This document shows positions 14,499 through 32,000 of a stretch of 32,000 bases of DNA, in pieces; positions within the stretch are counted from its first letter, which is position 1, and each line of letters opens with the position of its first letter. The position numbers and the translations under genes are program-made. The DNA comes from Candidatus Borrarchaeum yapensis (GTDB lineage: Archaea > Asgardarchaeota > Sifarchaeia > Borrarchaeales > Borrarchaeaceae). The DNA lies in the NCBI GenBank assembly GCA_016840515.1, contig JAEOSF010000036.1:3959-35958 (forward strand), given 5' to 3'. The notes beneath the pieces were generated by a model that worked only from the letters and a program-made list of their open reading frames with translations, did not search any database and was not told where the DNA came from.

Positions 14499-14527
14499 AA
14501 GAATAAGAATTGCATTAATTAATGCGC

Positions 14528-15013: not shown

Positions 15014-15063
15014 AGATTTCCCTCAGGTTCCCTCTACAGTTTTATAGTTACTTCGCAAGAAGA

Positions 15064-15372: not shown

Positions 15373-15423
15373 CAAACTAAAAAAATAATTGTTAGCCTCC
15401 CCACTAAAAAACTTGTTTCTAAT

Positions 15424-15855: not shown

Positions 15856-15865
15856 CTTTTCAACC

Positions 15866-16999: not shown

Positions 17000-17182
17000 C
17001 TTTTTCAGCCAGCCTCAAATACAAGTATTTATCCGTTTTCAATATTCATACGACACTTTGCTATGCATTATCCTATTCACTTTTAAACTATTCCTTAATG
17101 GACACAGTTGACAAGAATTCAGACAGGATACATTGAATAGAGCGAAAATCCTCTAAAGGGAATTGATATAAGCAGAAAAAGT

Positions 17183-17305
17183 GGACCTTCAGCATTCAGT
17201 TTTCCCATCTGCTCTCGCAAGATAGTACTCACACGAACGTGTCCAGGCTTAACTTCTGAGTTCGGCTGGGATCAGGTGTGACCCTGGACCTATGACCGAA
17301 GATCC
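17183..17305 (-). rRNA. rrf: 5S ribosomal RNA
   Basis: The minus-strand RNA GGAUCUUCGGUCAUAGGUCCAGGGUCACACCUGAUCCCAGCCGAACUCAGAAGUUAAGCC.. contains the universal CCGAACUCAGAAGUUAAGC block. Helix I (GGAUCUUCGG / CUGAAGGUCC) closes the molecule. Length 123 nt. Confidence 0.95.
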
Positions 17306-17371
17306 AACTACAAGCATATAGGATCCATATAAAAACTTAACTATAGCTTATTTTGAGATGATTTTTAATAG

Positions 17372-17609
17372 TGGTGGGGACGGAGGGATTTTCAGAAAAA
17401 GAGGTTATCTCTATTTTCCTTTGAACCCCCGACATCCGCCAACCCGTGAATCCACGTTTTGTCATCGGGTTTCTCTGGTAAGCACAACTCCAGAAGATCT
17501 TCATCCTTCCGTCAGTTTTTGCTATTTACAAACCTCTGGAGCCCGACGTGCTACATTACCTCATACTAACCTACCAGAGATTAATACGAACTGGCTACAC
17601 TACGTCCCC
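17372..17609 (-). tRNA. tRNA-Trp(CCA) with four putative introns; CCA encoded
   Basis: Acceptor GGGGACG/CGUCCCC and A73. Anticodon arm UCGGG-CUCCAG[65 nt]A-CCCGA. T arm GGGGG-UUCAAA[31 nt]U-CCCUC. D arm GUGU-AGCCAG[36 nt]GUA-GCAC. Variable loop UG[29 nt]GUC. The segment lengths sum exactly to 238 nt, giving a 77-nt mature tRNA. Confidence 0.85.
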
Positions 17610-17711
17610 AATTCAATTGTAGGTACGAAATAGTGTTCTTGATTCAATTTTAAATCTTACTAAAATGATGTTTTGATTATTCCTCAATTACAAAATAACT
17701 TTGAAGAAGTG

Positions 17712-18857: not shown

Positions 18858-19031
18858 TAAGTTCTCCTCATTTTAATCTTCAGGCATCCCATCTGAATAC
18901 CATGATTTTGGAAAAGTCTCTACATTTCTATATTAGAACAGGTTACAAATAAAAAAGTTAACTTCGATTTTAAGAGGCTTATTCAGAATTTCCGCGCTCA
19001 CTGTTATATTCTACGAGGTTTATGAGCTGTT

Positions 19032-19574
19032 TTAATTTACAAAAAGGGTCGCCGTATAAATATTACCTATATCTGAGTAAATCGTAATCCTTACAAGGCT
19101 GTCTGCAGCAAAATAATCTCCAGAACCTTCACAATAGAATTTAATGTAGACAAAAATGCGTCCAGCAGGAATATGTAAGTTAAAATCGTTCGCTTTAGAA
19201 TTAAGTAGTAACTCATCGTCCCCTAAATAGACGGCTACTTTCCAATTGTCATCCTTCCATGAGGTCCAGACTCTATCCATATTCTCCACTTTCAGGCGTG
19301 TCAGAATAACCTCAGTATTTCCCGTGTTTGTAAGAATTATACTCATAGCATAGTCCTTTGGTGAACCTCCAGGCCTTACTGTGTATTGATTTGCTTTATC
19401 TCCATCCCTTCCATAATATTGAAAGCCACCCACCGCAAGCCGTTCTTCCTGCTGTGCGACTAAGATGAGTAAAACACCTATAAACAGTGTTATGAAAATC
19501 AGTGCCCCAAGAAATAAGACGTAACCCTTCATTGATTTGAGTTTATACAAGTTCCGAGCCCTCGTTTTCTTCAT
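19032..19574 (-). CDS. hypothetical N-terminally anchored extracellular protein
   Basis: Basic N-terminus (..KSMKG) followed by a single hydrophobic helix, then a beta-rich body. A class III (pilin-like) signal is possible but unproven. Confidence 0.55.
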   Translation of the reverse strand: MKKTRARNLYKLKSMKGYVLFLGALIFITLFIGVLLILVAQQEERLAVGGFQYYGRDGDKANQYTVRPGGSPKDYAMSIILTNTGNTEVILTRLKVENMDRVWTSWKDDNWKVAVYLGDDELLLNSKANDFNLHIPAGRIFVYIKFYCEGSGDYFAADSLVRITIYSDIGNIYTATLFVN

Positions 19575-19741
19575 TGATTAAGGTAACCTTTGGATAATGC
19601 CTTTTCAAGGAGTCTCTATCAATATTAAATGAAATGTATAGATGGATTGTATATATGAAACATATAGGTGAAACTCAAATAGTATTTGTTGAGTCACCAT
19701 AAAATTAAAAAAACAAAAAGCAAATCATTAACAAAGCAGTC

Positions 19742-19817
19742 GCCGCCGTAGCTCAGTTGGCAGAGCGTTGGACTTGTAATCCAATGGTCGAGGGTTCAAA
19801 TCCCTTCGGCGGCTCCA
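19742..19817 (+). tRNA. tRNA-Thr(UGU), intron-less, CCA encoded
   Basis: Perfect cloverleaf: GCCGCCG UA GCUC AGUUGGCA GAGC G UUGGA CUUGUAA UCCAA UGGUC GAGGG UUCAAAU CCCUU CGGCGGC U CCA. Confidence 0.97.
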
Positions 19818-19855
19818 TCTCACGGGCCTCATCCCAACAGATAGTTACTTAATGT

Positions 19856-20025
19856 GGGCGGGTGGTCTAGCATGGTATGATTCCGGATTTGGGTGTCCTC
19901 CTCTTAATGGGGAAGCAAAAACATCCGGAGTTCTGCTTGGGTAACCCCAGCACGATACGGAATGACTCTACACACACGCTGTGGGGTTCCAGAAGCCGGG
20001 AGTTCGAATCTCCCCTCGCCCACCA
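19856..20025 (+). tRNA. tRNA-Pro(UGG) with two putative introns; CCA encoded
   Basis: Acceptor GGGCGGG/CUCGCCC and A73. Anticodon arm CCGGA-UUUGGG[29 nt, 19894-19922]A-UCCGG. Variable loop AG[64 nt, 19931-19994]GCC. T arm GGGAG-UUCGAAU-CUCCC. 170 nt minus 93 nt gives 77 nt. Confidence 0.75.
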
Positions 20026-20121
20026 CTCTTTACTCTTTTTAAGAAATAATTAATGAAAGATAATATAATCCTTGAAATCATACTCCCTGTATTATTTGAA
20101 ATGCTCAAATTAGGTGTTTAG

Positions 20122-21579
20122 ATGAATCATGTAGAAATAATGATGCTAGATGAACAGACTCGAATCGTACTTTGGCAGCGTCTTGTTGAAGTTATTGAAG
20201 AATATACTGCAAATGTTAATCACGCACGCGTTGCACCCTATTTAGATGCAGATAAGATACGATCTCTTCTAAATTCTATTACATTTACACAGTCCATAGA
20301 TCCTTTACAGGCATTGAATTTTGTAGTACAAGGTTTGTGGGACTATCAGATGCATGTTTCTCATCCACAATATTTTGGTTTATTTAATCCTGCGCCAACC
20401 ACAATGGGAATCGTAGCAGATGCTTTGGTTGCTGCTTTTAATCCTCAACTCGCAACATGGAGCCACAGTCCCTTTGCCATAGAAATTGAACAATACTTGA
20501 TTCGACTTTTTGCATCTCAATTTGGTTATAATTCGGAAAAGGCAGATGGTACTTTTACAACGGGTGGTACTGAAGCTAATCATACGGCGATATTGACTGC
20601 TCTCACACACAAATTTCCAGAATTCGCACAAAGAGGGCTAAGAGGACTTGATAAGCAACCTAAACTGTATGTTTCTACAGAAAGTCATCACTCCCTTATA
20701 AGGACAGCTCGTTCCTGTGGTCTTGGCGCAGAAGCAGTACAACAAATACCTGTAGACGATTCACTGCAAATGAAAGTAGATGCCCTCACTGAGCAAATTG
20801 CAAAAGATAGAGCAGCTGGGTTCGCGCCATTTCTAGTGGCGGCGACCGCAGGAACGACTAACGCTGGAGTGGTAGATCCGATTATTCGAATTGCTGATGT
20901 AGCAGCCGAAGAAGAACTTTGGTTTCACGTTGATGCGGCATGGGGCGGCGCAATTGTACTTGTAACTGAGTTTCGTAATATTCTTGAGGGCGTTGAACGA
21001 TCAGATTCGATCACATTCGACACACACAAGTGGCTAAATGTTCCTATGGGTGCTGGCCTCTTCTTAACTCGCCATCCAGAAATTCTCCTTAATACCTTTT
21101 CTATAGACGCCGATTACATGCCCAAGGATGCGCTTGGACTAAATGTAGTTGATCCATATGTTCGTTCCCTACAATGTTCGCGCAGATTTATTGGTCTAAA
21201 AGTCTTTTTATCACTGCTTGTAGCAGGATGGGATGGATATAGCACCCTAATTAAACATCAAGTAAAAATGGGCGACTTATTACGACAAGAACTTAAAAAA
21301 TCAGGTTGGGGCATCGTTAATCAGACAAAGTTACCAGTTGTGTGTTTTGTTGATCAACAAAGACCAGAAGGGAGATCTGTCGAGTTCATTGAAAGCATCG
21401 CTCAAGGTGTTGTTTCTTCTGGAAAGGCTTGGATTTCTACTACAAGACTAAAACAAAATATACCTGTACTAAGAGCATGTATTACAAACTACCGAACAGA
21501 ATCAGAGGACATCTATGCTTTAGTTCGTGTGCTCAACGAAAAAAGGCAGGATTTTTACAGTAAAAATAGTCAAACATAG
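20122..21579 (+). CDS. PLP-dependent group II amino-acid decarboxylase
   Basis: TGGTEANHTA, HVDAAWGG and the PLP-lysine motif SITFDTHKW are typical of the DDC/GAD/MfnA superfamily. Confidence 0.88.
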   Translation: MNHVEIMMLDEQTRIVLWQRLVEVIEEYTANVNHARVAPYLDADKIRSLLNSITFTQSIDPLQALNFVVQGLWDYQMHVSHPQYFGLFNPAPTTMGIVADALVAAFNPQLATWSHSPFAIEIEQYLIRLFASQFGYNSEKADGTFTTGGTEANHTAILTALTHKFPEFAQRGLRGLDKQPKLYVSTESHHSLIRTARSCGLGAEAVQQIPVDDSLQMKVDALTEQIAKDRAAGFAPFLVAATAGTTNAGVVDPIIRIADVAAEEELWFHVDAAWGGAIVLVTEFRNILEGVERSDSITFDTHKWLNVPMGAGLFLTRHPEILLNTFSIDADYMPKDALGLNVVDPYVRSLQCSRRFIGLKVFLSLLVAGWDGYSTLIKHQVKMGDLLRQELKKSGWGIVNQTKLPVVCFVDQQRPEGRSVEFIESIAQGVVSSGKAWISTTRLKQNIPVLRACITNYRTESEDIYALVRVLNEKRQDFYSKNSQT

Positions 21580-21596
21580 ACCTTAGAGTTATCAGG

Positions 21597-22097
21597 TTAA
21601 CAACAGGCAAGTGAAGTATCTTCTTTCTCGGTTGAAAGTACAATAATAGTACGCGTTCGGCCTACTCCACGAAGACGATTAATCTTTATTATTAATTCTT
21701 CAAGAGTTGAAATATTTTCGGTCTTCACCTTAATCAAGAGGTCTTCATCCCCCGCCAAGTGAAATACTTCCATGACATCCTTCATATTAGCAACTTCGGA
21801 GGAAACATTAACATCCGGGTCATACTCTTTATAATCTAAAGTAATCAAAATAAATGTAGTTATATCTTTACCCAACTTCTTATCATCTAAGACAACGGTG
21901 TATTTCTTGATTACTCCGTTTTCCTCTAGTTTTTTAATTCGTTCATGGATGCTAGGGACTGATAATATCACACCCTTTGCTTTTAACCCTTCTTTGATAT
22001 CTTCAAGTTTCTGTTTAGAATCCTCTTGTAATAATTCAAGAATTCCTCTATCTTTTTCATCAATAACCAGTTCTTTTATCGTTGCCAAAATCCTCAC
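21597..22097 (-). CDS. Lrp/AsnC family transcriptional regulator
   Basis: N-terminal HTH (DEKDRGILELLQEDSKQKLEDI) plus a C-terminal RAM/ACT-like domain. 166 aa. Confidence 0.88.
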   Translation of the reverse strand: MRILATIKELVIDEKDRGILELLQEDSKQKLEDIKEGLKAKGVILSVPSIHERIKKLEENGVIKKYTVVLDDKKLGKDITTFILITLDYKEYDPDVNVSSEVANMKDVMEVFHLAGDEDLLIKVKTENISTLEELIIKINRLRGVGRTRTIIVLSTEKEDTSLACC

Positions 22098-22293
22098 CGC
22101 TTTGTTTTATTGCGGAAAAGTGTTAACTTATTAAAATCTATTTATTCAAAACTGAATTCTATTAGTTATGTATATAAATGTTACCATAAGCCATTAATGA
22201 TAACATATAAAACACCGAAATATGTAGTACGTATATGGCGAAAAAGCCGAAATAAATAAATTAATTGGATGGAAATGATGGAGGCATATCATC

Positions 22294-22590
22294 ATGTCCT
22301 TTGAAGTGAATTATGATAGAGTAACTCAAAATTTGAACTCGATTATATTAAGTGAGGAAGGGAAAATGTTGCAGGAAATAGCAAAACCTGAAACCTTAAA
22401 GAGTGTTAGCATATCTGAAAACAAATCCTTACGTCTATTTCTAAAAGACCAAAAACACTTTGTAGAGTTAATCGCGTGTGGATATAATGTTACATATTTA
22501 GCAGGAAAAACTCTGCATGAGGCAGAAAAGCGCTATATGGAACTCCTCCATAAGATAAAAAGTGGAGGAAGCATGCTAGAGCCATATTGA
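22294..22590 (+). CDS. small hypothetical protein
   Basis: 98-aa ORF with a GGAGG-like Shine-Dalgarno 8-12 nt upstream. Preceded by a 6-codon mini-ORF/hairpin at 22235-22255. Confidence 0.45.
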   Translation: MSFEVNYDRVTQNLNSIILSEEGKMLQEIAKPETLKSVSISENKSLRLFLKDQKHFVELIACGYNVTYLAGKTLHEAEKRYMELLHKIKSGGSMLEPY

Positions 22591-22834
22591 TTCGAAACAT
22601 TTGCTAGAGACCTTTTATATGATTAGGAGAACGGTTCTTGGCTATTGGATACGCGTATGGTTATGAACTAGGTCTAACTAATACGAACACAAGGCTTGCA
22701 AAAAACTGAGTATATATGTTTTTGAATTTCTTATAATCAAAAAGTTCATAAACTACAAACAGCATTAATTATGTGGCGAAAAGACGCCTAAGAATGTTCA
22801 TTATAGATTATTATAATTAAAGAGGTGAGGGGAA

Positions 22835-23107
22835 ATGAAGGTAACAATAAAGGGTTTTATACTTCAACTCCTCGACGAATCGTTCTACGAAGTCCCTGTG
22901 GCTGTTCCTAACGTCATAAAATTTACAAAAGAATTTTTCCCTGAGGAAACAGAACATAAGATCGAGGCAGTTATAAATGAATTAATTAAAGACGGTTCTT
23001 TAATCCTTGGAATCGCTTATGGCTATGTACGTGGCATAATGAGTGCGAAAAAAGTTTTTGCGAAACAGCCGTTAGCATATGTAAAGCCACTTCTCGCGAA
23101 AACATAA
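22835..23107 (+). CDS. small hypothetical protein
   Basis: 90-aa ORF with a GAGGTGAGG Shine-Dalgarno. Preceded by a similar 6-codon mini-ORF/hairpin at 22771-22791. Confidence 0.45.
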   Translation: MKVTIKGFILQLLDESFYEVPVAVPNVIKFTKEFFPEETEHKIEAVINELIKDGSLILGIAYGYVRGIMSAKKVFAKQPLAYVKPLLAKT

Positions 23108-23299
23108 CATTATCTCCTTTTTTTCGGTTTTCAGATATTTTTCAGATCTGATTTTTCAAGTTCAAAAAACGGATATATTGCCTAAATTCCCTTACTGACG
23201 TTTTTTTGAAGAAATAAAATAAGAAACCGCTTTAACGTCAATAATACTATTAATCGTTAATATTTAAAAAGCGTAGCATGAATTTAGGAAAGATCAACA

Positions 23300-23668
23300 A
23301 TGACAACTTTAAATTTTAACTTGGAAAAACTCTTAGATGAAATCCCGGTTGGACTGACTTATGTAGATAAGAACGGCATTATTCTCTATCGAAACAAGAC
23401 CGCTGCACAACGGCCTTTGCCAAAAGGAACTAGAGAATTTGGAGCACGTATAAAAGACTGCCATGCATTATCAAAGAGTTTAGAACAGATAGCCAAAATA
23501 TTTAATGATTTCAAAAGCGGTCGTAAAACGCCACACCACTATATTTCTCAAAGGACGGATATCAAAGAATTGGTAACTTTAACTCCAATATTCGAAAATG
23601 ATCAGTTTGTTGGATGTTTCTCAACTATCCATCCGCTAGAAATAAAGGGTGTCAGTAGAACTTTTTAG
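23300..23668 (+). CDS. stand-alone PAS-like sensor domain protein
   Basis: LDEIPVGLTYVDKNGIILYRNK..R..G.....CH..SKS resembles PAS modules of the DUF438-associated type (family recalled from memory). Confidence 0.6.
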   Translation: MTTLNFNLEKLLDEIPVGLTYVDKNGIILYRNKTAAQRPLPKGTREFGARIKDCHALSKSLEQIAKIFNDFKSGRKTPHHYISQRTDIKELVTLTPIFENDQFVGCFSTIHPLEIKGVSRTF

Positions 23669-23673
23669 AAGAG

Positions 23674-25191
23674 TTAGTTCCCGATCAAATCACGAATGAA
23701 CTGAACTATCAGGCGTACTCCTACTCCTGTAGCCCCTTTTGGGATGTATGCTTTATTTTTATCTGAGCGAGCAGTTCCTGCTATATCTAAATGAATCCAT
23801 GGTGTTCCTTTTTCTACAAATTTTGATAAAAATGCACCAGCTATAATTGCAGCGCCATCACGCCCTCCTACATTTTTTAAATCGGCAAAATCACTCCTTA
23901 AATGAGTAGAATACTCTTTCCATAGGGGTAATTCCCAGACTCGTTCCCCAGTTTTTTCACCTGCTGATGTAATTAGTTTCTTGAAGTTTTCTGCTTCTTT
24001 ATTTGCCATCAAAGCACTAGCATATATACCAAGAGCTATTCTACAAGCCCCAGTAAGTGTTGCTAAATCGATAATTAGTTGAGGAGTATATTTTTTGGCA
24101 TAAGTCAACGCATCTGCTATTACTAGTCTTCCTTCAGCGTCTGTATTAACAATTTCTATAGTTGTACCAGAAAGAGACTTGATTACATCACCTGGTTTTA
24201 TTGCCTTTCCTCCAGGCAAGTTCTCTGTTGCGGGAATGAGGCCGAATAAATGAATTGGCAACTGCAACTGGCTTACTGCACGCATGAGCCCAATGACTGT
24301 GCATCCGCCGGACTTATCGTATTTCATGTTCTCCATGCCTAGTTTCTGTTTTAACGAAAGCCCTCCAGAATCAAAGGTAATAGCTTTACCGACAACGACT
24401 ATAGTATCTAACTTCTCGTTATCTGATGGTTTGTATTCAAGAATGATGAGCTTCGCGGGCTGATCACTTCCTAGCGCTACACTAAGGAAAGCATTCATCC
24501 CTATTTCCCTTGCAGTGGATTCATCTAAAACCTCGCATTTGAGACTAAAAGTTGCTGCAAGTTCTTCAGCTTTTGCAGACAAGTAGGACGGGGTAGCTAT
24601 ATTGGCAGGCATATTAGCTATGTCTCGTGCAAAATTCGTTGACTCTGCGATAATATTGCCTATATTTGCTCCTTCTTGTAGTTCATCAAGAAGTCCCATA
24701 TCACGTTCCAAAAGCAGAATACTTTTTATAGAAGATGAATCACTTTGAGATTCCGTTTTGAGTTCTTTAAACTGGTACAGGCCTAATATACTTCCTTCAA
24801 TCACTGCCTGCGCCGTAGCTTTCGTGGAATTTAGACGAAATTCTTGAAGGGTGGTTACAATTTCTTGGATGTTCAATTCTCGAGTACGAACTGCAGTTTT
24901 TCCACTTACTTGTCTAAGTCTTTCAAGGCTAAGCGAGTCTTTTTTGCCTAAACCCACGAGAAGAATTCGTTTTGTAGGTAGTACATCTTTTGTTCGAAGC
25001 ATATCGATAGTATTCAATTTCCCTGAAAACTCTTTGCTCTCAAGTAAGTCTCTGATAGCGCCATTGAGGGAGGAATCTACTACCTGCAATGATCTACTCG
25101 TAAAATCACTTGTTTCATTCTCAAAAACGCCTAACACAACGATTTCATATTCTTTTTCTTCGATTTTCCCATGTTCGACAAGAATGTCCAT
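23674..25191 (-). CDS. pepA: leucyl aminopeptidase (M17 family)
   Basis: VGKAITFDSGG, the NTDAEGRL signature, DLATLTGA, and the expected length. Confidence 0.95.
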   Translation of the reverse strand: MDILVEHGKIEEKEYEIVVLGVFENETSDFTSRSLQVVDSSLNGAIRDLLESKEFSGKLNTIDMLRTKDVLPTKRILLVGLGKKDSLSLERLRQVSGKTAVRTRELNIQEIVTTLQEFRLNSTKATAQAVIEGSILGLYQFKELKTESQSDSSSIKSILLLERDMGLLDELQEGANIGNIIAESTNFARDIANMPANIATPSYLSAKAEELAATFSLKCEVLDESTAREIGMNAFLSVALGSDQPAKLIILEYKPSDNEKLDTIVVVGKAITFDSGGLSLKQKLGMENMKYDKSGGCTVIGLMRAVSQLQLPIHLFGLIPATENLPGGKAIKPGDVIKSLSGTTIEIVNTDAEGRLVIADALTYAKKYTPQLIIDLATLTGACRIALGIYASALMANKEAENFKKLITSAGEKTGERVWELPLWKEYSTHLRSDFADLKNVGGRDGAAIIAGAFLSKFVEKGTPWIHLDIAGTARSDKNKAYIPKGATGVGVRLIVQFIRDLIGN

Positions 25192-25485
25192 GACATATAC
25201 AACTCCATCTACAATTAAAGTATGTAGCGCTTTACTCTAAAAAATGGTGGAGTTTATTAAAAAAAAGCGAACACAAATACTGGATTTCAAGAGCATATTC
25301 GATGAAGATCTCGTATGTGAACTCAGTATTTCCATTTATAGGTGAAACTTGCCTGCGAATGGGAAGTGCCGAAATAAAGGTGAAGAGTTTTACGAGAAAA
25401 CTTATCTACTATTGTTACATAAATAGTATTAAAGTCTAGGAGTTTGCTTTTTAACGCCTTTAGGTGAAGCTCCTTTAAAGACGAG

Positions 25486-26016
25486 GTGATTTCTCTGAAA
25501 AAAAGTCTAATAGCCTCAATTCTAAGCTTCGTACTTCTGCTTACATTGATGCCAATTGCAACCACCAATGCAACATATACGCATGAAGATCTAACGCTTA
25601 CAGTGCTAGTAAACGGTCAAGACGTGAGTCTTAATTATGTTGAATCCGATCCATTAGTAATGGATCTGTCACAAGCTATTGAAGTAGATCTTTCGATGAG
25701 CAATGACGGCGCTACGGTTCATCTTACTGATGCTACTGTGTCTTTCTACACTCTCCAGACAATACTTTTCTGGGAGTTGGAATCGAAGGTATACGATCAT
25801 CTGGTGGATCTTGACAACGACGATGACGATGGTGATGGAAAGGAAGGTTACGATATTCCCGCTGGTACAAGCGAGTCTGAAAGCTTTGAAATAACTACCG
25901 AAGATATTGCAGAGTACCGAGACGCACTTTCTGGACAAAGTGTACGGATTGACTTCCTCTTTAACTTTGAAACCATTTCAGACTATACCGTAACAGTCTA
26001 CATAACTTTTGTTTAG
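25486..26016 (+). CDS. hypothetical secreted protein with acidic (DNDDDDGDG) loop
   Basis: Signal-peptide-like N-terminus (LIASILSFVLLLTLMPIATTNA). A T-rich terminator follows the stop. Confidence 0.55.
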   Translation: MISLKKSLIASILSFVLLLTLMPIATTNATYTHEDLTLTVLVNGQDVSLNYVESDPLVMDLSQAIEVDLSMSNDGATVHLTDATVSFYTLQTILFWELESKVYDHLVDLDNDDDDGDGKEGYDIPAGTSESESFEITTEDIAEYRDALSGQSVRIDFLFNFETISDYTVTVYITFV

Positions 26017-26210
26017 CCCCTCTCTTTTTTTCTTTTTTTATTTTGCCTCTAACTTAATTCTAGGTGTTGATTTTCCAAAGTATATTGAGAAAGAGCTGTT
26101 TTCTCCTTATGCAATAAAGAAACATTAGAAAGTTAACTATTGAGAGGGATATTCTTTTATATTGTAGTTACTTATGACGTAATCTAGCTATAATAACTTA
26201 ACATCACCAA

Positions 26211-26435
26211 GCCGGGGTGGCTAAGAGTCGATGCATGAGGAAATTGCCCTCACTACATCGATGAGAAGCCTGGTTATAGCGCCGGACACTCTCCGAGCCG
26301 GTTTCATAGAGATTATCCCAAGAAAGCCCTTTCTTGAGACATCCGGAGAGACGTTACACGTTGAGGTAATGTTCTGAAGGTCGCGGGTTCGAATGGATGA
26401 GCGTAACGCTCTTTCCGAAAAGCCCGCCCCCGGCA
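26211..26435 (+). tRNA. tRNA-Met(CAU), elongator-like (Ile2-CAU not excluded), with five putative introns; no encoded CCA
   Basis: Acceptor GCCGGGG/CCCCGGC and A73. D arm GCUA-[53 nt = 10-nt loop + 43-nt insert]-UAGC. Anticodon arm CCGGA-C[16 nt]UCAUA[32 nt]A-UCCGG gives the loop CUCAUAA. Variable loop AG[31 nt]GUC. T arm GCGGG-UUCGAA[28 nt]G-CCCGC. 225 nt minus 150 nt gives 75 nt, with exact bookkeeping. Confidence 0.75.
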
Positions 26436-26486
26436 CTATCCTTAAAGGCTTGAGACACACCCTACGAAATTGATACATCATAATAA

Positions 26487-26657
26487 GCGGGGGTGGCCGA
26501 GCCAGGTCAATTTGCCTATAAGGGTCAGATCATAGGCGCTGGTGTGTGAGGCAACTGCTGCCTTATACTACGAGACTTAAGATCCAGTGACGTAGGTCTA
26601 CGTGGGTTCGAAAAGTTTTGGCGAAAGCCTTTTTCGGAAATCCCATCCCCCGCACCA
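26487..26657 (+). tRNA. tRNA-Leu(UAA), class II, with three putative introns; CCA encoded
   Basis: Acceptor GCGGGGG/CCCCCGC and A73. The D region GGCCGAGCCAGGUCAA[23 nt]AGGCG restores the usual archaeal Leu D arm. Anticodon arm CUGG[32 nt]A-CUUAAGA-UCCAG. Long variable arm UGACGUAGGUCUAC. T arm GUGGG-UUCGAA[28 nt]U-CCCAU. 171 nt minus 83 nt gives 88 nt. Confidence 0.8.
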
Positions 26658-26696
26658 ATCATCTTCTAAAAAAACCCCTAATTTGAATAAAAAAAT

Positions 26697-26830
26697 GCCC
26701 CGATAGCTCAGCTGGTAGAGCGCGACCTTGGTAAGGTCGAGTTATCTTCGGAACTCCCGAAGATAAGATAAGTCGCGGGTTCGAAGGTTTTAAGAGAAAT
26801 CTCTTTCCGAAACACCCGCTCGGGGCTCCA
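26697..26830 (+). tRNA. tRNA-Thr(GGU) with two putative introns; CCA encoded
   Basis: GCCCCGA UA GCUC AGCUGGUA GAGC G CGACC UUGGUAA GGUCG AG[30 nt]GUC GCGGG UUCGAA[28 nt]A CCCGC UCGGGGC U CCA. 134 nt minus 58 nt gives 76 nt. Confidence 0.87.
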
Positions 26831-26939
26831 TTTCCATAATTTTTCACAATCTGTTGATAGAATATTGCGTACTCAACTCTACAGATTCACTAGTATCTGC
26901 ATTTAAAGTAATTAGAATTCAAAAAAGTAAATTAAGGGA

Positions 26940-28064
26940 TTACACAGCAAGATGAAATTCTTCTCTCAACCGCTTTGCTATTGTTTCCACTCTATTCAGT
27001 TTACTTAATCCCCATTGAGTTACTCTGTAGTATTTCTTACGTCCTCTTCGGTAGCGAACGCATTCTGCTAAACCCATTTTGACTAGTCTTCGAAGTGTAC
27101 AAACGATGCAATATTCTTTTAGTTGTGAGAGTCGTCCAAGTTCTTTAATATAGTTTTCTCCTTCTGCTAACGCCTCTAATATCTTTTTCTCGGTTATCCT
27201 GTTATTGTTCACTCGCATCATATCTACTGGATACATTGCTGATAACTCGATTTCTCCTCGGATTAACTTTACCCTCTCTACTAAATTCGTCTTGCGAGGC
27301 ATCAATCCAAATTTTTCATACAGCACTACTTTCGTCAAGTGCTTCGGATTATTGAATCCTATGCTGTTCATCCATCTCTCATAATTCTTGTCTCCATTTA
27401 TCGCCAGAATTAACGTCCCATCGTCACTTTCCCACAACCTCTTAGGAATGACAAACCCTAATCGCCTCAACTGCTCCTGCAACTGTCTCATTAAAGGCTC
27501 ACTAATTGAACTATAGCTCAGAACTGGGTAGGTATGCGCTAATCCGTCTTTACTCTTAAAACTTAGACTTCCATCTCCATCGAATAGTCCTCGCATTAAT
27601 ATACGGAGAATTCTCAGATTTTGTAAAAAATATCTCGGGATTGTAATTGTCTTTTTTTTTCCATAGGGCAGCCCTAGTACTTTATTTTTGAATAATACCA
27701 GCTGTTTAGACTTTTTTTCTACGATAATTGTCCGCTCGCCTCTTACTCCTCTGAAGTAGATTCGTGAAGTGCCTCATAATTGTTTCAATAACGGCGCAAA
27801 GTGAAATATGTAATAGGGAAAATCATCTATGGCATGACCGTGATATTGTACCTTCTTGCTATTGCCTTCATAATTACCCATATGTCCATCACTAATATGT
27901 ATCCCAACATTTTCAGCGAGCTGCTCTGTCACCTCTTCAGGTAACTTCACTGGATGGTAAATTCTGCTTCCTCCAAAGTCTAACTCCCGAGTTGGCAGCG
28001 GAATTCTGCACCTCTGTTCAACTTCTTCTAACTTCTGAGCTCGATTTACCATATTATTCCTCAC
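26940..28064 (-). pseudogene. free-standing double-motif LAGLIDADG homing-endonuclease-like gene with C-terminal winged-helix domain, interrupted by one in-frame TGA (27774-27776)
   Basis: ORFs 27774..28064 and 26940..27596 are in the same frame (27776-27596=180). I translated the 59 intervening codons by hand and found no other stop. Joined length is 374 codons. The motifs VGIHISDGHMG and LFDGDGSLSF lie about 100 aa apart, as in monomeric LAGLIDADG enzymes. The C-terminal LRRLVKMGL..YYRVT looks like a wHTH. Confidence 0.72.
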
Positions 28065-28511
28065 TATCTCGCTTTTCTTGATAAGGGTTTCATAGCGTTC
28101 ATAAGAATTTTAAAATTTGAAATAAGTCTCCTTAGATCTATATATTTTCAATAAAATTTAAGGATATTCATCATTTTTGCCGTTATTCTTATTAAATTTA
28201 CAGAATGTTCATTAGAATTGACAAGAAGTTTCTTAGAAATGACAAAAGGTTCTACTATTTTTGTTAAGGTTACACTCAATCTTGATAGAAAATTCATCGA
28301 ATGATAGGAAAACTACTACAAATTTCGAACTGGTTCCTTCTTTCAAATGTCTAACAAATCAGTTGAATTTTCCCATAATTACTTAGAACAATGATAGAAT
28401 TGGTCAGATAATGAAATAACCGCCTGCAATTGTTATTGCGAATATTATTCCATTTATAAACAAATTAAAATTTCAACTAAGTTCTTTCAATAATGATTGA
28501 GCACCGCAACT

Positions 28512-28537
28512 AATCCGCGATCCTTATATAATTAGAT
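28512..28537 (+). repeat. 26-nt direct repeat copy 1 (AATCCGCGATCCTTATATAATTAGAT), TATA-box-like core
   Basis: 25/26 identical to copy 2, which lies 113 nt downstream. The TTATATAA core resembles an archaeal TATA box. Degenerate similarity extends about 30 nt upstream of both copies. Confidence 0.8.
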
Positions 28538-28583
28538 TCGAAGGTCTGAGTAATTGCTCTGTCCGAAATACCCATCTGGGGCT
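28537..28583 (+). other. orphan tRNA 3' fragment (T-loop + 59/60-type intron + T-stem 3' strand + acceptor 3' strand + U73)
   Basis: UUCGAA[GGUCUGAGUAAUUGCUCUGUCCGAAAU]A-CCCAU-CUGGGGC-U aligns block for block with the 3' part of tRNA-Thr(GGU). No matching T-stem 5' strand (AUGGG) or acceptor 5' strand (GCCCCAG) occurs upstream. Confidence 0.65.
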
Positions 28584-28624
28584 TTATTCAATTTACTTCA
28601 AGTTTTAATAATTTTCCCCAATTA

Positions 28625-28650
28625 AATCCGCGATCCTTATATAATCAGAT
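28625..28650 (+). repeat. 26-nt direct repeat copy 2 (AATCCGCGATCCTTATATAATCAGAT), TATA-box-like core
   Basis: See copy 1. Lies about 225 nt upstream of the CDS at 28875. Confidence 0.8.
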
Positions 28651-28874
28651 CAGTTGTACTGAGCGGTAACTCCTTCAACGTTTCTTTGAATTATAGGTTA
28701 AATATCTTCAATCAAAAAACTAGATAACAAGTAATTGATGAATAAATGTAGTAGAGGGCGTAAAAATTTAATTATACGAAAAATTGAAGTAGAGGCGCAA
28801 AACTTTATTTATTATAGTTCAGTTATTAAGGTGAATAAAATTAGTGGATTTAAGAACGAAATGTTGGTGATTTT

Positions 28875-29771
28875 TTGCAGTTAATTGACGCTTTTCAAGG
28901 ACTTATTAACTCATTAGCGGCCTCAACGGGCTTAGCCGCTGTTATTTTTGAATTAATCTTTGTTGTCGTTATTCTTGTAGTGCTTGTCATTGGAGGATAT
29001 TTTGCAGGAAAATCTGTAGGAGGAGGAAAAGAATCCTCAGCAACTTCTAAACTTCTAATCCCATCTGAAGGATATTCCATAGATGAAAGTATTTCTATAG
29101 ATGAAGTAACTCAAACTCAAGAAACTCTGCAAATACTCGAAGTTGAGAAGACATCAGCAACACAGGCGATTAAAAGTGCAGAAAAAGCCTACAAAAGTAA
29201 AAAAATTAGCCCATCTGCATATCAAAAACTTATGGAACTATATTCTGAACGACTTGAAAAAATCAATTCCGAAATATCACGCCGAACAAGTGTTGTAAAA
29301 GTAGGGACTTTAGAAGCAGAATTCGAACGTGCAAGACAAGAAGCCCTTGTAGAATTGAAAGGAGAACCAGAAGAAGTTACTGAACTAGGTGTTCCAGAAG
29401 CAGGATTAATAGAAGAATCTGAAGTTCTAGAAGGACCTGCAACTCCAGCAGGACCGCCCACAGGTCCCCCTACAGGACCGCCCACAGCACCCCCTACAGG
29501 ACCGCCCACAGCACCCCCTACAGCACCACCTACAGCCCCCCCTACGACTCCACCTGCAGGGCCACCTACAGCACCCCCAACGACTCCACCTGCAGGGCCA
29601 CCTACAGCACCCCCTACAACGACTGAAACTCCCACAGCACCCCCAACGACGCCTCCAGCACCTGGAGAAGATCTTGTTGAAGCAGGAATGGCGACAGTTG
29701 CTTCACTAAGATCAGAAATGTTAAATGAGCTAAGAAGACTCAAAAAATATATGCAGAAACCACCTGCTTAA
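28875..29771 (+). CDS. membrane-anchored coiled-coil protein with Pro/Thr-rich (PPTx) repeat region, TTG start
   Basis: N-terminal TM helix, a predicted coiled-coil middle, then (G/A)PPT(G/A)PPT repeats and a short basic tail. Confidence 0.65.
   Translation: MQLIDAFQGLINSLAASTGLAAVIFELIFVVVILVVLVIGGYFAGKSVGGGKESSATSKLLIPSEGYSIDESISIDEVTQTQETLQILEVEKTSATQAIKSAEKAYKSKKISPSAYQKLMELYSERLEKINSEISRRTSVVKVGTLEAEFERARQEALVELKGEPEEVTELGVPEAGLIEESEVLEGPATPAGPPTGPPTGPPTAPPTGPPTAPPTAPPTAPPTTPPAGPPTAPPTTPPAGPPTAPPTTTETPTAPPTTPPAPGEDLVEAGMATVASLRSEMLNELRRLKKYMQKPPA
29455..29650 (+). repeat. in-frame 12-nt-periodic tandem repeats encoding PPTx, including a 36-nt unit duplicated at 29544-29579 / 29580-29615
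   Basis: Direct reading shows the two 36-nt units differ at one position. The antisense ORF 29222..29743 is a repeat artefact. Confidence 0.8.
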
Positions 29772-29849: not shown

Positions 29850-30536
29850 TTAAAGTTTTGTTAATATTTTTACGCCTTTTTCTGAGCCTACGTAGACAAT
29901 ATCAGCCATATTTACGAACAAACCGTTTTCAATTACGCCTGGAATTGAGTTTAGTTGTTTTTCCATTTTATTATAATCTCTAATTTTTAGATCAAATATA
30001 TCGATGATAAAATTGCCATTGTCTGTCACCACAGGTCCAAGTTTTCTATTGCTCATTCGAACTTGAGGAATACCAAATTCTTTGAGTTGATTAAGTACAG
30101 TCGATTTAGCGAAAGGAATCACCTCAAGAGGAAGAGGGGCGATTTCTCCTAGGGTTTTAACAAGTTTACCCTCATCCACTAAGATCACGAGAAGTTTTGC
30201 GGCACACCCAACAATTTTTTCTTTTGTAAGTGCAGCGCCTCCTCCTTTTATGAGATTCAAATTGGGATCTACTTCATCTGCCCCATCAACAGCTAATGTT
30301 AAAGATGGATGCTCATCTAAGGTAGTTAAGCGAATGCCTGAAGAGATACACAACTGTGCAGTATCATATGAAGTTGGCACAGCCATAATATCTATCTCTT
30401 CGTTTTTAATTCTCTGACCAACCAATTTTATTACTTGCTTAACAGTTGAGCCACTGCCCATTCCAATGATCATTCCATCTTTTATGTGTTCAAGCGCAGC
30501 TTCTGCAGCCATCTTTTTGAACTCTTCACGATCCAT
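29850..30536 (-). CDS. rpiA: ribose-5-phosphate isomerase A
   Basis: GMGSGSTV, DGADEVD and KGGGAALTKEK motifs. 228 aa. Confidence 0.93.
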   Translation of the reverse strand: MDREEFKKMAAEAALEHIKDGMIIGMGSGSTVKQVIKLVGQRIKNEEIDIMAVPTSYDTAQLCISSGIRLTTLDEHPSLTLAVDGADEVDPNLNLIKGGGAALTKEKIVGCAAKLLVILVDEGKLVKTLGEIAPLPLEVIPFAKSTVLNQLKEFGIPQVRMSNRKLGPVVTDNGNFIIDIFDLKIRDYNKMEKQLNSIPGVIENGLFVNMADIVYVGSEKGVKILTKL

Positions 30537-30622
30537 AAATCATTCCCTCTATAGTTGATTAAACTATTGTTGTTGATTCCCATTAAATTTAAGGATATTA
30601 TATTACTTTTTGGCGAAATCAA

Positions 30623-31999
30623 CTATCCAGAAAAAGTGGTTACGGAAATTCTTTGTCCTTCTTGCAATGTTCTAAGAAGTTTTTTTCCATCCTTAGATGT
30701 CTTTCTTATTCTACAAACATCTTTTGTTCCTATTTTAGCGGTTAGAAGTTGTTTTCCATTCGCATAGAGAGTCAATATCTCGTTTGAGTGCCCTGGAGCC
30801 ATAATCATAATAAATTTCTTTTTGACCGCAATATCGAGCGGAATCTCGCTTTCTACCATATCTTCAAATTCACGAACCTCTATTTTGATGCCCAATTGTT
30901 GTTCGATTTCCCTGATTTTTAGACCGCTTTTTCCAATTATTTGGGGAACATATTCTTTGTTTGTTCGTACTATGATTCTATTTTCTGAAAGTGGCTCTAT
31001 TTCGAGAGGGGCATAAGGTACGTATTGTTCGAATACTGAAAGAATAGATTCCCGTCGCTCTTCAGATAGTTTTGGGATAACTTTCTTTTTTTCTGCGGCA
31101 CTTATAGGGATAACTACAACTTGTTCGCCAAAAGTATACAGTTCGTACAACAACTTATCTGTATCAAAATCTCGTATTTCAATGATTGGTCTGGAAAGGT
31201 CAGCTTCAAACATCCCATGTGGAACTTTAACTACCATTTGCAAATAATAAACACTATCTATGCGCCCTGAGTCCATGTATATGACAGTATCCACTATTTG
31301 TGGAATAATTCCTAATTCTACACGTCCAATTAGACGTTGAATTGCATCAACTGGTCGACTCGTATGGACCACTCCAAGCATTCCAACTCCTGCCATTCGA
31401 AAGTCTGCGAAGACCCGAAAATCAACTGTACGTCTCATCTCGTCGAAGGCCACAAAATCAGGTCTTATAAGAAGGAGCAGTTCGGCGGCTTTTTCAAAGT
31501 CACCCTCCAATGGAGCATATTGCGTAATTGTTGGACCTACCTGCAAGTCACGTGGCCTTTCAAGAGTTGCCACATTTTGTTTTTCTGCAAATAAATTAGC
31601 TATTGCTTGAACAAAAGTTGATTTACCTGATCCAGGTCTTCCCGCTATAATAATTCCTTCTGCTTGCTCTTCAATTCTTTGTCTAAGTCTTTCTGATAAT
31701 TCATAATCGCCAAGGGTTTTCGTCACAATAGGGCGAACTATGGTGACCTCAGATTTATCGGAAAATGGTGGATGCGTAATGACGATTCGGAGTTCTTTCA
31801 CCTGTAATACTGTAGCTCCTGGCTCGTCTACCTCTACAAAAGAATCTCTTTCAGTTTTAGCTCTCTCAATTAAATCTGTAGCAATACTCTGCAATTCACT
31901 GCGCTTCATTGGAAGATCGTCAACCTGTTCAAGATACCATTTCCCAGGCGTACCTCTTTTCGCCATTGGAGGCACTCCTTCTCGTAGATGCACAGACAT
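30623..31999 (-). CDS. PilT-like ATPase with C-terminal KH domain (COG1855 type); possibly 5'-truncated by the window edge
   Basis: Walker A GRPGSGKST and a C-terminal KH motif IIGKSGLKIREIE. Family members usually carry an N-terminal PIN domain that would lie beyond position 32000. Confidence 0.82.
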   Translation of the reverse strand: MSVHLREGVPPMAKRGTPGKWYLEQVDDLPMKRSELQSIATDLIERAKTERDSFVEVDEPGATVLQVKELRIVITHPPFSDKSEVTIVRPIVTKTLGDYELSERLRQRIEEQAEGIIIAGRPGSGKSTFVQAIANLFAEKQNVATLERPRDLQVGPTITQYAPLEGDFEKAAELLLLIRPDFVAFDEMRRTVDFRVFADFRMAGVGMLGVVHTSRPVDAIQRLIGRVELGIIPQIVDTVIYMDSGRIDSVYYLQMVVKVPHGMFEADLSRPIIEIRDFDTDKLLYELYTFGEQVVVIPISAAEKKKVIPKLSEERRESILSVFEQYVPYAPLEIEPLSENRIIVRTNKEYVPQIIGKSGLKIREIEQQLGIKIEVREFEDMVESEIPLDIAVKKKFIMIMAPGHSNEILTLYANGKQLLTAKIGTKDVCRIRKTSKDGKKLLRTLQEGQRISVTTFSG

Positions 32000-32000
32000 T

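Follow-up and report, generated by a model that had tools for sequence, protein, structure and literature searches.

Interrupted tRNA genes and their T-loop inserts

The window, a stretch of 32,000 nucleotides from the genome of the uncultured Asgard archaeon Candidatus Borrarchaeum yapensis, carries tRNA genes broken by multiple inserts, as well as a fragment made up of a T loop and a tRNA 3' end. The tRNA features and their T-loop inserts are as follows.

26211..26435, plus strand: tRNA-Met(CAU) gene, 225 nt, called by ARAGORN after manual splicing, orthologues aligned; compared with a 75-nt cloverleaf it has five inserts, in the D loop, at 32/33, at 37/38, in the variable loop and at 59/60
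26394..26421, plus strand: Met T-loop (59/60) bulge-helix-bulge (BHB) intron, 28 nt, TGGATGAGCGTAACGCTCTTTCCGAAAA
26487..26657, plus strand: tRNA-Leu(UAA) gene, CCA encoded, called by ARAGORN once spliced; three inserts, in the D loop, in the anticodon stem and at 59/60
26613..26640, plus strand: Leu T-loop intron, 28 nt, AAGTTTTGGCGAAAGCCTTTTTCGGAAA
26697..26830, plus strand: tRNA-Thr(GGU) gene, CCA encoded, with a weak Rfam match to its 5' part and called by ARAGORN on the spliced sequence; two inserts (variable loop, 59/60)
26786..26813, plus strand: Thr T-loop intron, 28 nt, GGTTTTAAGAGAAATCTCTTTCCGAAAC
17372..17609, minus strand: tRNA-Trp(CCA) gene, CCA encoded; at least four inserts, in the D loop, at 37/38, in the variable loop and at 59/60
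17389..17419, minus strand: Trp T-loop intron, 31 nt, GGAAAATAGAGATAACCTCTTTTTCTGAAAA
19856..20025, plus strand: tRNA-Pro(UGG) gene, used for comparison; its T loop has no intron in the window
28537..28583, plus strand: orphan T-loop/3'-end fragment; intron at 28543-28569, 27 nt

An earlier, sequence-only reading of this DNA had described five inserts, in the T loops of Met, Leu, Thr(GGU), Trp and the orphan, and all five were recovered with the same positions and lengths when the window sequence was read again. Their assignment to a class of BHB-type introns at position 59/60 is borne out by the geometry at the exact coordinates. We used a scripted BHB rule, in which exon nucleotides 54-57 pair with intron nucleotides e-5..e-2 and the bulges are formed by 58,59|i1 and e-1,e|60. 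Under this rule the central helix has the four pairs out of four that had been proposed for the Met, Leu, Thr(GGU) and Trp inserts, the T stem has 5 bp in all four complete genes, and the inner helix measures 3 bp in Met, 2 in Leu, 1 in Thr and 5 in Trp, which means that both outer helices flanking the bulges are present (a T stem of 5 bp and an inner helix of 1-5 bp). Because its inner helix consists of only 1 bp, the Thr intron is a relaxed BHB form; it has a separate 5-bp hairpin besides. The orphan insert has kept the central helix and is missing the 5' strand of the T stem. The architecture pattern matches four times in the window versus 0 times in 100 shuffles, and the 12-mer CTCTTTCCGAAA, said to be shared by Met and Thr, does occur in both.

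In each gene A-rich sequence repeats on either side of the junction, which leaves the exact cut site uncertain by 2-3 nt. In each T-arm minihelix the BHB fold lies 2.4-6.3 kcal/mol above the minimum-energy fold; in the minimum-energy fold of the Leu minihelix a longer helix takes in the 5' bulge, and the predicted BHB motif of Leu may be relaxed. For the D-loop and variable-loop inserts, read by eye, a strict BHB register at its best still has two nucleotides too many in the loop; where a standard loop is obtained, only three of the four central pairs form. The Trp D loop could contain either one insert or two.

With the inserts taken out by hand, the genes give canonical cloverleaves, which ARAGORN identifies as Met(CAT), Leu(TAA), Thr(GGT), Trp(CCA) and Pro(TGG). 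The unspliced intron-bearing genes are missed by ARAGORN and Rfam, except for the weak partial Rfam match to Thr(GGU), and the default yield of the two programs is limited to an intron-less Thr(UGU) and that partial match. A homologue of the splicing endonuclease EndA adjoins the window. As the catalytic histidine is missing from it in an alignment with Methanocaldococcus jannaschii EndA, this homologue is probably a non-catalytic subunit; no catalytic EndA subunit was seen. Asgard EndA has been reported as an (alpha-beta)2 enzyme with a broad-specificity loop (PMC5829648).

Presence, absence and similarity of the introns among relatives

The comparison with related genomes that the sequence-only reading had proposed reveals clean presence/absence differences at Met, Trp and Pro, in interrupted genes that are syntenic in four related genomes. 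In an alignment of orthologues, the Met intron is precisely missing from B. weybense (L007) and from L015, and the L063 Met orthologue has a divergent T-loop intron. The Leu intron is identical in sequence in B. weybense and L015. The working Trp gene of B. weybense has no T-loop intron; since a relic of this intron survives in a B. weybense orphan that adjoins the 5S gene, the Trp intron is best read as ancestral, not as a recent gain. Compared with the window Pro gene, that of B. weybense has a clean 31-nt T-loop insert. Intron-less orthologues thus correspond to the predicted spliced product for Met (L007, L015), for Trp (L007) and, conversely, for Pro. Because B. weybense Met and Trp have uninterrupted T loops of exactly the sequence expected after splicing, the Met, Leu, Thr(GGU) and Trp inserts, as judged from these orthologues, behave as introns.

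The surroundings of the genes have a mixed history. Sequence identity is a mosaic, with values of 95-96% dropping to 80% at Trp and breakpoints located at tRNA genes, and L015 is window-like on one side and L007-like on the other. In an attempt to polarise gain versus loss by a simple tree, the regions that flank Met gave conflicting relationships, which indicates recombination. A genome scan with the M17 peptidase returned one archaeal relative only, the other six loci being bacterial with 28-47% identity.

Helix conservation was assessed on 22 T-loop introns that had been selected for the central helix and not for the inner helix; pair counts were limited to anchored helices, the variable inner hairpins not being placeable in common columns by MAFFT. 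The central helix is 100% paired in this set, which was chosen for that feature, and the inner helix is 79.5% paired, with both-side changes at all four pairs. The pair that involves R57 covaries, being A-U in 11 introns, G-C in 9 and G.U in 2. The introns from metagenomes were fetched with a pattern that forces a U-rich 3' motif, and they are no evidence that the motif is universal; it is missing from the L029b, L063c and L064a introns, which were found free of this constraint.

Similarity between introns of different tRNAs was judged against a background of 351 intron pairs, with a median score of 0 and a 95th percentile of 10. The window Trp intron and the B. weybense Pro intron score 15, second best among the 351 pairs; the latter is identical to the Trp relic of the same genome at 26 of 31 positions, and it retains the Trp-matched strand UGAA, which leads to a G.U pair with the UUCG of Pro. 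The window Met intron scores 10 against the Thr introns of relatives (B. weybense) and 7 against the Met intron of L063, and the sequence GAGCG...CGCTCTTTCCGAAA is common to the window Met and B. weybense Thr introns, as is the 11-mer GGAAATTTGAG to the L063 Leu and B. weybense Thr introns. The closest relative of the window Thr intron is orphan 1 in L083 (score 14). Among the window introns themselves, Met and Thr score 3 with the forced 3' end excluded (shuffle p about 0.009), and the similarities of Leu to Met and of Leu to Trp are not significant (p 0.07-0.09). Similar introns at the same position between unrelated exons are therefore found for Trp/Pro and for Met/Thr, relatives included, and not for Leu versus the other window introns; the Leu intron belongs to the same structural class, whether or not it shares their descent.

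Spread of one intron type between non-homologous tRNA genes, as claimed in the sequence-only reading, thus holds for Trp/Pro and Met/Thr once relatives are included, and the window alone offers thin grounds for common descent, with Met and Thr weakly similar and Leu not significantly so. The intron transposition invoked there needs to be qualified as well, part of the turnover being replacement of whole tRNA 3' ends by a mobile cassette. We regard the copying of intron sequence between non-homologous tRNA genes as supported by these comparisons, because near-identical introns occur in different tRNAs (Trp/Pro and Met/Thr).

A LAGLIDADG cassette at tRNA 3' ends

Relative to B. weybense and L015, the window has an insertion between the tRNA-Thr(GGU) gene and the orphan, with the following features.

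26831..28536, no strand assigned: 1.7-kb insertion, a decayed LAGLIDADG cassette
26940..27596, minus strand: putative LAGLIDADG homing-endonuclease gene, 5'-truncated, with a winged helix-turn-helix (wHTH) domain, 218 aa
27774..28052, minus strand: small cassette ORF, 92 aa, from gene calls mapped to window coordinates
28512..28537, plus strand: cassette-end motif AATCCGCGATCCTTATATAAT, just 5' of the orphan; direct repeat D2

Window positions 22813-26832 and 28556-29573 abut in L007 with a 33-nt overlap (blastn), and likewise in L015. The orphan is followed by the native flank ATTCAATTTACTTCA, which is found directly 3' of Thr in L007 and L015, and the orphan intron is closest to the Thr intron of L015. 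It is evidently what remains, in decay, of the former tRNA-Thr(GGU) 3' end with its T loop and intron, so that what had been counted as a fifth locus is an ancestral part of that same gene, displaced from it. The working Thr(GGU) gene owes its T loop and 3' end to the cassette; its downstream flank matches the cassette end in L083. An older second copy of the cassette-end motif lies at 28625-28650, and the motif AAATCCRCGATCC is found 5' of the orphans in L082-L086 and also within the native Thr flank of L007 and L015.

The putative endonuclease encoded in the window matches Pfam LAGLIDADG_3 with an E-value of 1.7e-7 and has 39 homologues, some of them named LAGLIDADG family homing endonuclease [Promethearchaeota]. 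Full-length homologues have about 362 aa and contain the motifs LAEExGxHISDG and LRGLFDGDGS, of which the window copy retains only the second in the alignment; a search by sequence yielded no relative of known structure for the nuclease domain. In L082 and L084 an ORF of 88-93 aa lies immediately upstream of the endonuclease gene, and the small ORF in the window has the corresponding position. At seven loci (the window, L083, L084, L085, L086, L087 and L088) a working tRNA is separated from an orphan by the cassette, and a direct repeat of the 3' part of the tRNA flanks the inserted DNA in the window and at six further loci. No integrase or recombinase was found in the 1.7-kb insert or in the L082-L087 cassettes; a faint Phage_integrase match in L088 falls outside the cassette.

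The T-loop intron is present in both the new and the old copy in the window, L083 and L084, in the old copy only in L085 and L086, and in the new copy only in L087 and L088; the two T-arm copies hence differ in intron state at four of the seven cassette loci. At L087 an intron-bearing Pro 3' end has been supplied by the cassette and the orphan left behind is intron-less. The endonucleases found at different tRNAs are 51-58% identical, which implies that the cassette has jumped between tRNAs rarely and long ago. A role of T-loop introns as protection against the cassette finds no support, as intron-bearing copies adjoin the cassette on both sides.

Origin and spread of the T-loop introns

Taken together, we consider it likely that these inserts are 59/60 BHB introns which are mobile over evolution, being gained and lost, copied between tRNAs and exchanged by the cassette. 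In the precursor, U54-R57 of the T loop would pair with the four intron bases e-5..e-2, forming a 4-bp central helix that stacks upon the T stem, and the remainder of the intron would fold into a hairpin. A58, A59 and the first intron base would make up one 3-nt bulge, and the last two intron bases with N60 the other, on the opposite strand; EndA would cut both after their second nucleotide and RNA ligase would join the exons, the splicing step being inferred. In this lineage, T-loop introns of such size and shape would form a frequent class that is mobile over evolutionary time. The cassette, consisting of the 88-93-aa ORF and the LAGLIDADG gene, would insert at the 3' ends of tRNA genes, carrying its own T arm, intron and 3' exon and displacing the old copy downstream, and the cassette could later be lost through recombination between the copies, with a clean gain or loss of the intron as the result.

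An unlikely alternative to shared ancestry is convergence, in which constraints imposed by EndA and by structure make independently arisen inserts look alike, as a 59/60 intron must end in YGRA plus two bases in order to pair with UUCR and needs a minimal hairpin. The weak or absent similarity of the window introns outside the forced 3' end (3 for Met/Thr, not significant for Leu) would fit this reading, and so would the L029b, L063c and L064a introns, with the same length and fold and a different sequence, and the U-tract, which in many members is the 3' strand of the inner helix and pairs with an A-rich 5' strand. Constraint of this kind does not account for the near-identity of the B. weybense Pro intron and Trp relic, with a UGAA that fits Trp better than the Pro gene in which it is retained, for the stretches common to Met and Thr and to Leu and Thr introns, or for the U-tract kept in Thr, where it is unpaired. 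Quite improbable, too, is that turnover amounts only to replacement or gene conversion between alleles of the same tRNA, by the cassette or by recombination between strains, with no moves from one tRNA to another. The direct evidence is indeed limited to replacement of same-tRNA 3' ends, and the mosaic identity points to frequent recombination with breakpoints at tRNA genes; however, Trp-like introns are found in Pro genes with Pro-specific exons (B. weybense, L087), and the window Met intron is nearer to Thr introns than to another Met intron.

That the interrupted genes are pseudogenes, or that the inserts are kept in the mature tRNA as T-loop expansions, is suggested by the failure of standard tRNA finders to call them, but appears very improbable, given that the exons are conserved, that the spliced forms are perfect cloverleaves with the expected anticodons, that synteny extends over four related genomes, that the intron helices show compensatory changes and that intron-less orthologues match the spliced product exactly. 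Moreover, an insert of 28-31 nt in the T loop is expected to disrupt the contact between D loop and T loop, so that retention would break it. It is equally hard to credit that the orphan is a functional 3' half, with a promoter of its own, of a tRNA that is split and trans-spliced, even though a TATA-like TTATATAA lies about 10 nt 5' of it and the motif is also found 5' of other orphans. A 5' partner, recognisable by the acceptor GCCCCAG and the T stem ATGGG, is absent from the window, decay has affected the 5' strand of the orphan T stem, the 3' strands of its T stem and acceptor are unlike those of all intact Thr genes except for the L063 acceptor, and relatives have progressively decayed copies at the corresponding position. 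This identity was rejected in favour of a decayed Thr 3' end.

Within the mobile-intron reading, we tentatively suggest a further step, possible though on balance doubtful: that the free-standing LAGLIDADG cassette, targeting the T arm and 3' end of tRNAs, is the vehicle of BHB-intron mobility. It would integrate along with a T loop, intron and 3' exon of its own and then be removed by recombination; in addition, breaks made by the putative endonuclease in the near-universal T-loop sequence GGTTCRAA might sometimes be repaired from another tRNA gene, whereby an intron would be copied across non-homologous tRNAs. Such a scheme in an Asgard archaeon would be akin to collaborative homing. The phage systems with free-standing homing endonucleases for which "collaborative homing" has been described (PMC3984707, PMC6083498) likewise have the endonuclease gene beside, not inside, the intron-bearing target, with co-transfer of flanks and intron; they involve self-splicing group I introns and clean homing, whereas the introns here are of the BHB type, the target is left duplicated, as the orphan, after insertion, and replacement ends with and without an intron both occur.

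Earlier work has already documented 59/60 BHB introns, Asgard tRNAs rich in introns and intron "transposition". In Thermoproteales, non-canonical BHB tRNA introns and their "large-scale intron transposition" have been described (Sugahara 2008; Fujishima 2010; as presented in PMC4033280 and PMC4090602). As far as these accounts go, the resemblance includes short protein-spliced introns at non-canonical positions, several per tRNA, tRNAs of differing identity that carry similar introns at a given position, and a broad-specificity (alpha-beta)2 EndA; the differences are a host that is Asgard, Borrarchaeota-like, and not a crenarchaeon, five inserts in tRNA-Met versus a stated maximum of three, and the presence/absence snapshots and candidate vehicle found here where the mechanism was left open. 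Atabeyarchaeia and Freyarchaeia have introns in 92-95% of their tRNA genes, often non-canonical and multiple (Valentin-Alvarado 2024, PMC11291895), and in Supplementary Data 4 of that study many introns end 17 nt before the gene end, one of 31 nt in Trp among them, which is consistent with T-loop introns. That study gives counts and coordinates only, with no intron families, orthologue comparison or link to a mobile element, and its table has at most four introns per gene, versus the five inserts of tRNA-Met. In Caldiarchaeum subterraneum a mobile insertion of about 1.8 kb separates tRNA-Thr(GGU) from a fragment of the same tRNA (Sugahara 2012, PMC3293823), an arrangement shared with the window; that insertion encodes a DNA recombinase and is associated with a 5' fragment, whereas here there is a LAGLIDADG endonuclease with no integrase seen, and the duplicated part runs from the T arm to the 3' end, T-loop intron included. 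Permuted tRNAs with their BHB junction at this 59/60 site are known from Thermofilum pendens and Cyanidioschyzon merolae (Chan 2011, PMC3218864); the T-loop junction and BHB processing are shared, with genes that are circularly permuted there and colinear, with an intron, here.

What is added is a further example of a known intron type and a candidate vehicle for its mobility. It also shows the reason why standard tRNA finders miss most tRNAs of such genomes. How protein-spliced tRNA introns arise is a question for which "transposition" was inferred in Thermoproteales without a mechanism. The present lineage offers natural before/after pairs, with Met, Pro and Trp each occurring with and without the T-loop intron, as well as a cross-tRNA copy from Trp to Pro and a recurrent endonuclease cassette that exchanges intron-bearing and intron-free 3' ends, and this makes the question of intron gain experimentally approachable. 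Asgard archaea are the closest known relatives of eukaryotes, and their intron-dense tRNA genes, along with the dynamics of these, therefore bear on the ancestry of eukaryotic tRNA splicing.

Short introns in the T loop

Reading of the sequence gives six tRNA genes in the window (G+C content 38.7%), where ARAGORN reports only one tRNA and Rfam that same tRNA, plus a 5S rRNA and a weak match to part of a further tRNA. The metagenome contig to which the window belongs was found in samples of marine and estuarine sediment, as JGI Ga0309836_1000230 and also as a contig from White Oak River SMTZ1.

tRNA genes in the window
17372-17609, minus strand, tRNA-Trp(CCA)
19742-19814, plus strand, tRNA-Thr(UGU)
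19856-20025, plus strand, tRNA-Pro(UGG)
26211-26435, plus strand, tRNA-Met(CAU)
26487-26657, plus strand, tRNA-Leu(UAA)
26697-26830, plus strand, tRNA-Thr(GGU)

Four of the six (Trp, Met, Leu and Thr(GGU)) carry a T-loop insert between positions 59 and 60, exactly where the sequence-only reading had placed it. We scored every possible intron by the canonical bulge-helix-bulge (BHB) rule, which derives from the known geometry of anticodon-intron pairs: the four exon bases preceding the last two pair with intron bases e-5 to e-2 (e being the last intron base), with one bulge of two exon bases and one intron base and another of two intron bases and one exon base. All four inserts form the 4-bp central helix that had been proposed for them (4/4 pairs) on a T stem of 5 bp, and their inner helices measure 3 bp (Met), 2 bp (Leu), 1 bp (Thr) and 5 bp (Trp); the architecture pattern has four matches in the window and none in 100 shuffled versions, and the 12-mer CTCTTTCCGAAA said to be common to the Met and Thr introns is real. 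In an alignment of 22 T-loop introns from the window, Candidatus Borrarchaeum weybense and metagenome contigs, the inner-helix columns, which played no part in choosing the introns, are 79.5% paired, with both-sided changes at 4/4 pairs, and the R57 pair covaries (A-U 11, G-C 9, G.U 2). For the minihelices (T stem plus T loop with intron), the minimum-energy fold is 2.4-6.3 kcal/mol more stable than the BHB fold; in that of Leu a longer helix absorbs the 5' bulge, so the Leu intron may represent a relaxed motif.

After removal of the inserts by hand, ARAGORN folds canonical Met(CAT), Leu(TAA), Thr(GGT), Trp(CCA) and Pro(TGG) tRNAs. Stronger support for intron status comes from orthologues in B. 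weybense (Asgard, phylum Borrarchaeota), the only close relative of the window in the species collection, whose locus L007 is syntenic with it across the stretch compared and whose M17 peptidase is 77% identical. The Met orthologue in B. weybense and in metagenome contig L015 reads GCGGGTTCGAAGCCCGC: compared with the window it cleanly lacks 28 nt, the sequence on both sides being identical, and the other four Met inserts are all conserved in both. The working Trp gene of B. weybense is uninterrupted (GGGGGTTCAAATCCCTC), and conversely the T loop of its tRNA-Pro is cleanly interrupted by 31 nt that the Pro gene of the window lacks. These comparisons indicate that the T-loop inserts are introns, and we infer that they are spliced. 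Just past window position 32000, at 7316-7954 of the extending contig (L001), lies a gene for a 212-aa homologue of the tRNA splicing endonuclease EndA, which, when aligned with M. jannaschii EndA, keeps the catalytic Tyr and Lys and has Ala in place of His. Since the catalytic His is absent, this protein is probably the structural (beta) subunit, a reading that fits the (alpha-beta)2 EndA with broad-specificity L1 loop published for Asgard archaea (PMC5829648). No catalytic subunit was seen.

The same genes hold other inserts. Removal of five inserts (about 43, 16, 32, 31 and 28 nt) from tRNA-Met(CAU) leaves a 75-nt cloverleaf; the D-loop and variable-loop inserts have borders that misfit a strict BHB in the register that yields standard loops. 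The tRNA-Thr(UGU) gene is intron-free and 73 nt long in the window but 103 nt long in B. weybense (L007 15387-15489), so that here, too, an intron is present in one genome and absent from the other. In tRNA-Pro, the insert in the variable region (19930-19995, ~64 nt) contains several overlapping good BHB candidates and may consist of two introns or a nested pair.

Copying of introns between tRNA genes

The sequence-only reading took one intron type to have spread between non-homologous tRNA genes. When the introns are compared pairwise after removal of the forced last six bases, the within-window evidence for one family is thin: Met and Thr score 3 (shuffle p about 0.009), and neither Leu versus Met nor Leu versus Trp is significant. 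Among 351 pairs, with a median score of 0 and a 95th percentile of 10, the second highest score, 15, belongs to the Trp intron of the window and the Pro intron of B. weybense (GGAATAGAGAGAAACCCTCTCTTTCTGAAAA). The latter agrees at 26/31 positions with the relic of the Trp intron in its own genome and keeps UGAA, which pairs perfectly with UUCA of Trp and makes a G.U pair with UUCG of Pro. The window Met and B. weybense Thr introns have GAGCG..CGCTCTTTCCGAAA in common (score 10), above the 7 that the former scores against the divergent Met intron of contig L063, and the Leu intron of L063 begins with the same 11 bases as the Thr intron of B. weybense. Such cross-tRNA matches in relatives argue that copying between non-homologous tRNAs has taken place, resembling the "intron transposition" of Thermoproteales (PMC4033280; PMC4090602). 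The proposed spread is supported for Trp/Pro and Met/Thr through relatives, but not for the Leu intron of the window against its other introns. The class of T-loop introns is broader than any one sequence family, since those retrieved without motif constraint (L029b, L063c, L064a) have size and fold in common but differ in sequence, and the metagenome retrieval pattern imposed a U-rich 3' motif.

Precisely at the Trp gene, identity between the window and B. weybense falls to about 80% from 95-96% (L007 against window 14319-17417 and 17357-26832). On the M17 side the nearest match to L015 is the window (89.8%), and on the rpiA side it is B. weybense (92.6%), as measured over window 23864-25191 and 29850-31990 against L015, L007 and L063. 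From these identities, recombination between diverged strains appears to have its breakpoints at the tRNA genes. After Borrarchaeum (77%), the closest relatives that the M17 leucyl aminopeptidase (23674-25191) has in the genome collection are bacterial (Thermodesulfobacteriota/Syntrophaceae, 46-47% identity), which hints at a bacterial origin of its gene.

A recurrent cassette with a putative endonuclease gene at tRNA 3' ends

A fragment at 28537-28583, comprising T loop, intron (28543-28569) and tRNA 3' end, had been counted as a further locus of the intron family; it has the central helix and lacks the 5' strand of the T stem. Comparison by blastn with B. weybense and L015 reveals that the window has an insertion of 1.7 kb (about 26831-28536) with a copy of the Thr T loop, intron and 3' end on either side. 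The native flank ATTCAATTTACTTCA lies directly 3' of the fragment in the window and directly 3' of Thr in B. weybense and L015, and the closest intron to that of the fragment is the L015 Thr intron. The working Thr(GGU) 3' end is followed by inserted sequence; this working end and its inserted flank recur as an orphan in another genome, at locus L083 (assembly GCA_048940565.1). The fragment at 28537-28583 is instead the old end of Thr(GGU), an orphan beside the insertion.

Within the insertion, a 218-aa ORF matches Pfam LAGLIDADG_3 and is a 5'-truncated version of a gene whose full-length protein (~362 aa) combines a MarR-like winged helix with two LAGLIDADG-type motifs; 39 homologues were found, some named LAGLIDADG family homing endonuclease [Promethearchaeota] by NCBI. 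Seven homologue loci were inspected (L082-L088), of which L082 stops short of the working tRNA gene. Every locus with sufficient flank has the same arrangement: the putative endonuclease gene is antisense to the tRNA gene with 3' ends adjacent, and on the far side of the cassette stands an orphan copy of the same tRNA, from T arm to 3' end.

T-loop intron in the new and old (orphan) copies at cassette loci
Window: Thr(GGU); new, yes; old, yes
L083: Thr(GGU), three orphans; new, yes; old, yes in the first orphan
L084: tRNA with acceptor 3' strand CGGACCC; new, yes; old, yes
L085: tRNA with acceptor 3' strand CGGGCCC; new, no; old, yes
L088: same tRNA as L085; new, yes; old, no
L086: Leu-like tRNA; new, no; old, yes
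L087: Pro; new, yes (Trp-like intron); old, no

At four of these loci (L085-L088) the new and old copies differ in T-loop intron state, so that the cassette has exchanged intron-bearing and intron-less ends. The intron-less orphan of L087 retains the native flank found in the window. The cassettes contain no integrase, and from the gene family we infer that they move through endonuclease-induced breaks. Endonucleases at different tRNAs are only 51-58% identical, which argues that the cassette rarely changes its host tRNA. We hypothesize that the cassette could be lost if the direct copies recombined with each other at a point downstream of the intron; such deletion would account for the clean gain at Pro in B. 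weybense and the clean loss or gain at Met.

At Trp in B. weybense, an 830-bp insertion (L007 17905-18745) has an intron-less new 3' end, and the old intron-bearing end is stranded beside the 5S gene. No LAGLIDADG gene was seen in this insertion, which may therefore be a different or more decayed element; it holds a small ORF (MPAYVISMMAIHDPDTYRKY...) and a ~300-nt G+C-rich, structured-looking stretch without an Rfam match. Most orphans are preceded, at a distance of 15-25 nt, by a conserved motif, AAATCCRCGATCC, which occurs at window 28512-28537 and 28625-28650, in L082-L086, at L007 8356 and at L015 6688. Its presence in the apparently native Thr flank of the cassette-free B. weybense and L015 suggests older, decayed insertions there. 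At Thr loci the motif is followed by TATA-like TTATATAA; its candidate roles are cassette end, promoter or recognition site.

Downstream, the ORF at 28875-29771 encodes a long proline/threonine repeat (PPTGPPTAPPT...) without a Pfam match, and the opposite-strand ORF at 29222-29743, its glycine/valine-rich mirror, is probably spurious. On the same contig, the RNA polymerase subunit B gene (L001 1-1714) contains an intein (Pfam Intein_splicing), a further endonuclease-associated selfish element of this genome.

Relation to known systems

Junctions of the BHB type at 59/60 are known in permuted tRNAs (PMC3218864). Thermoproteales are known for intron transposition and for several non-canonical introns per gene, three being the stated maximum (PMC4033280), and the Asgard Atabeyarchaeia and Freyarchaeia have tRNA genes rich in non-canonical, multiple introns, tabulated at up to four per gene (PMC11291895); the Met gene of the window, with five inserts, exceeds both. 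Many introns in that table end 17 nt before the gene end (PMC11291895), which is compatible with T-loop introns. In Caldiarchaeum, a mobile element of 1.8 kb has been described together with intron gain and a fragment of tRNA-Thr(GGU) (PMC3293823). In the literature searched we found no description of T-loop intron families in Asgard archaea or of a LAGLIDADG cassette at archaeal tRNA 3' ends. The initial observation is confirmed and its interpretation partly supported; the comparisons add orthologous pairs with and without the intron, the Trp-to-Pro copy and a corrected account of the orphan, together with a recurrent cassette that is a candidate vehicle for intron turnover.
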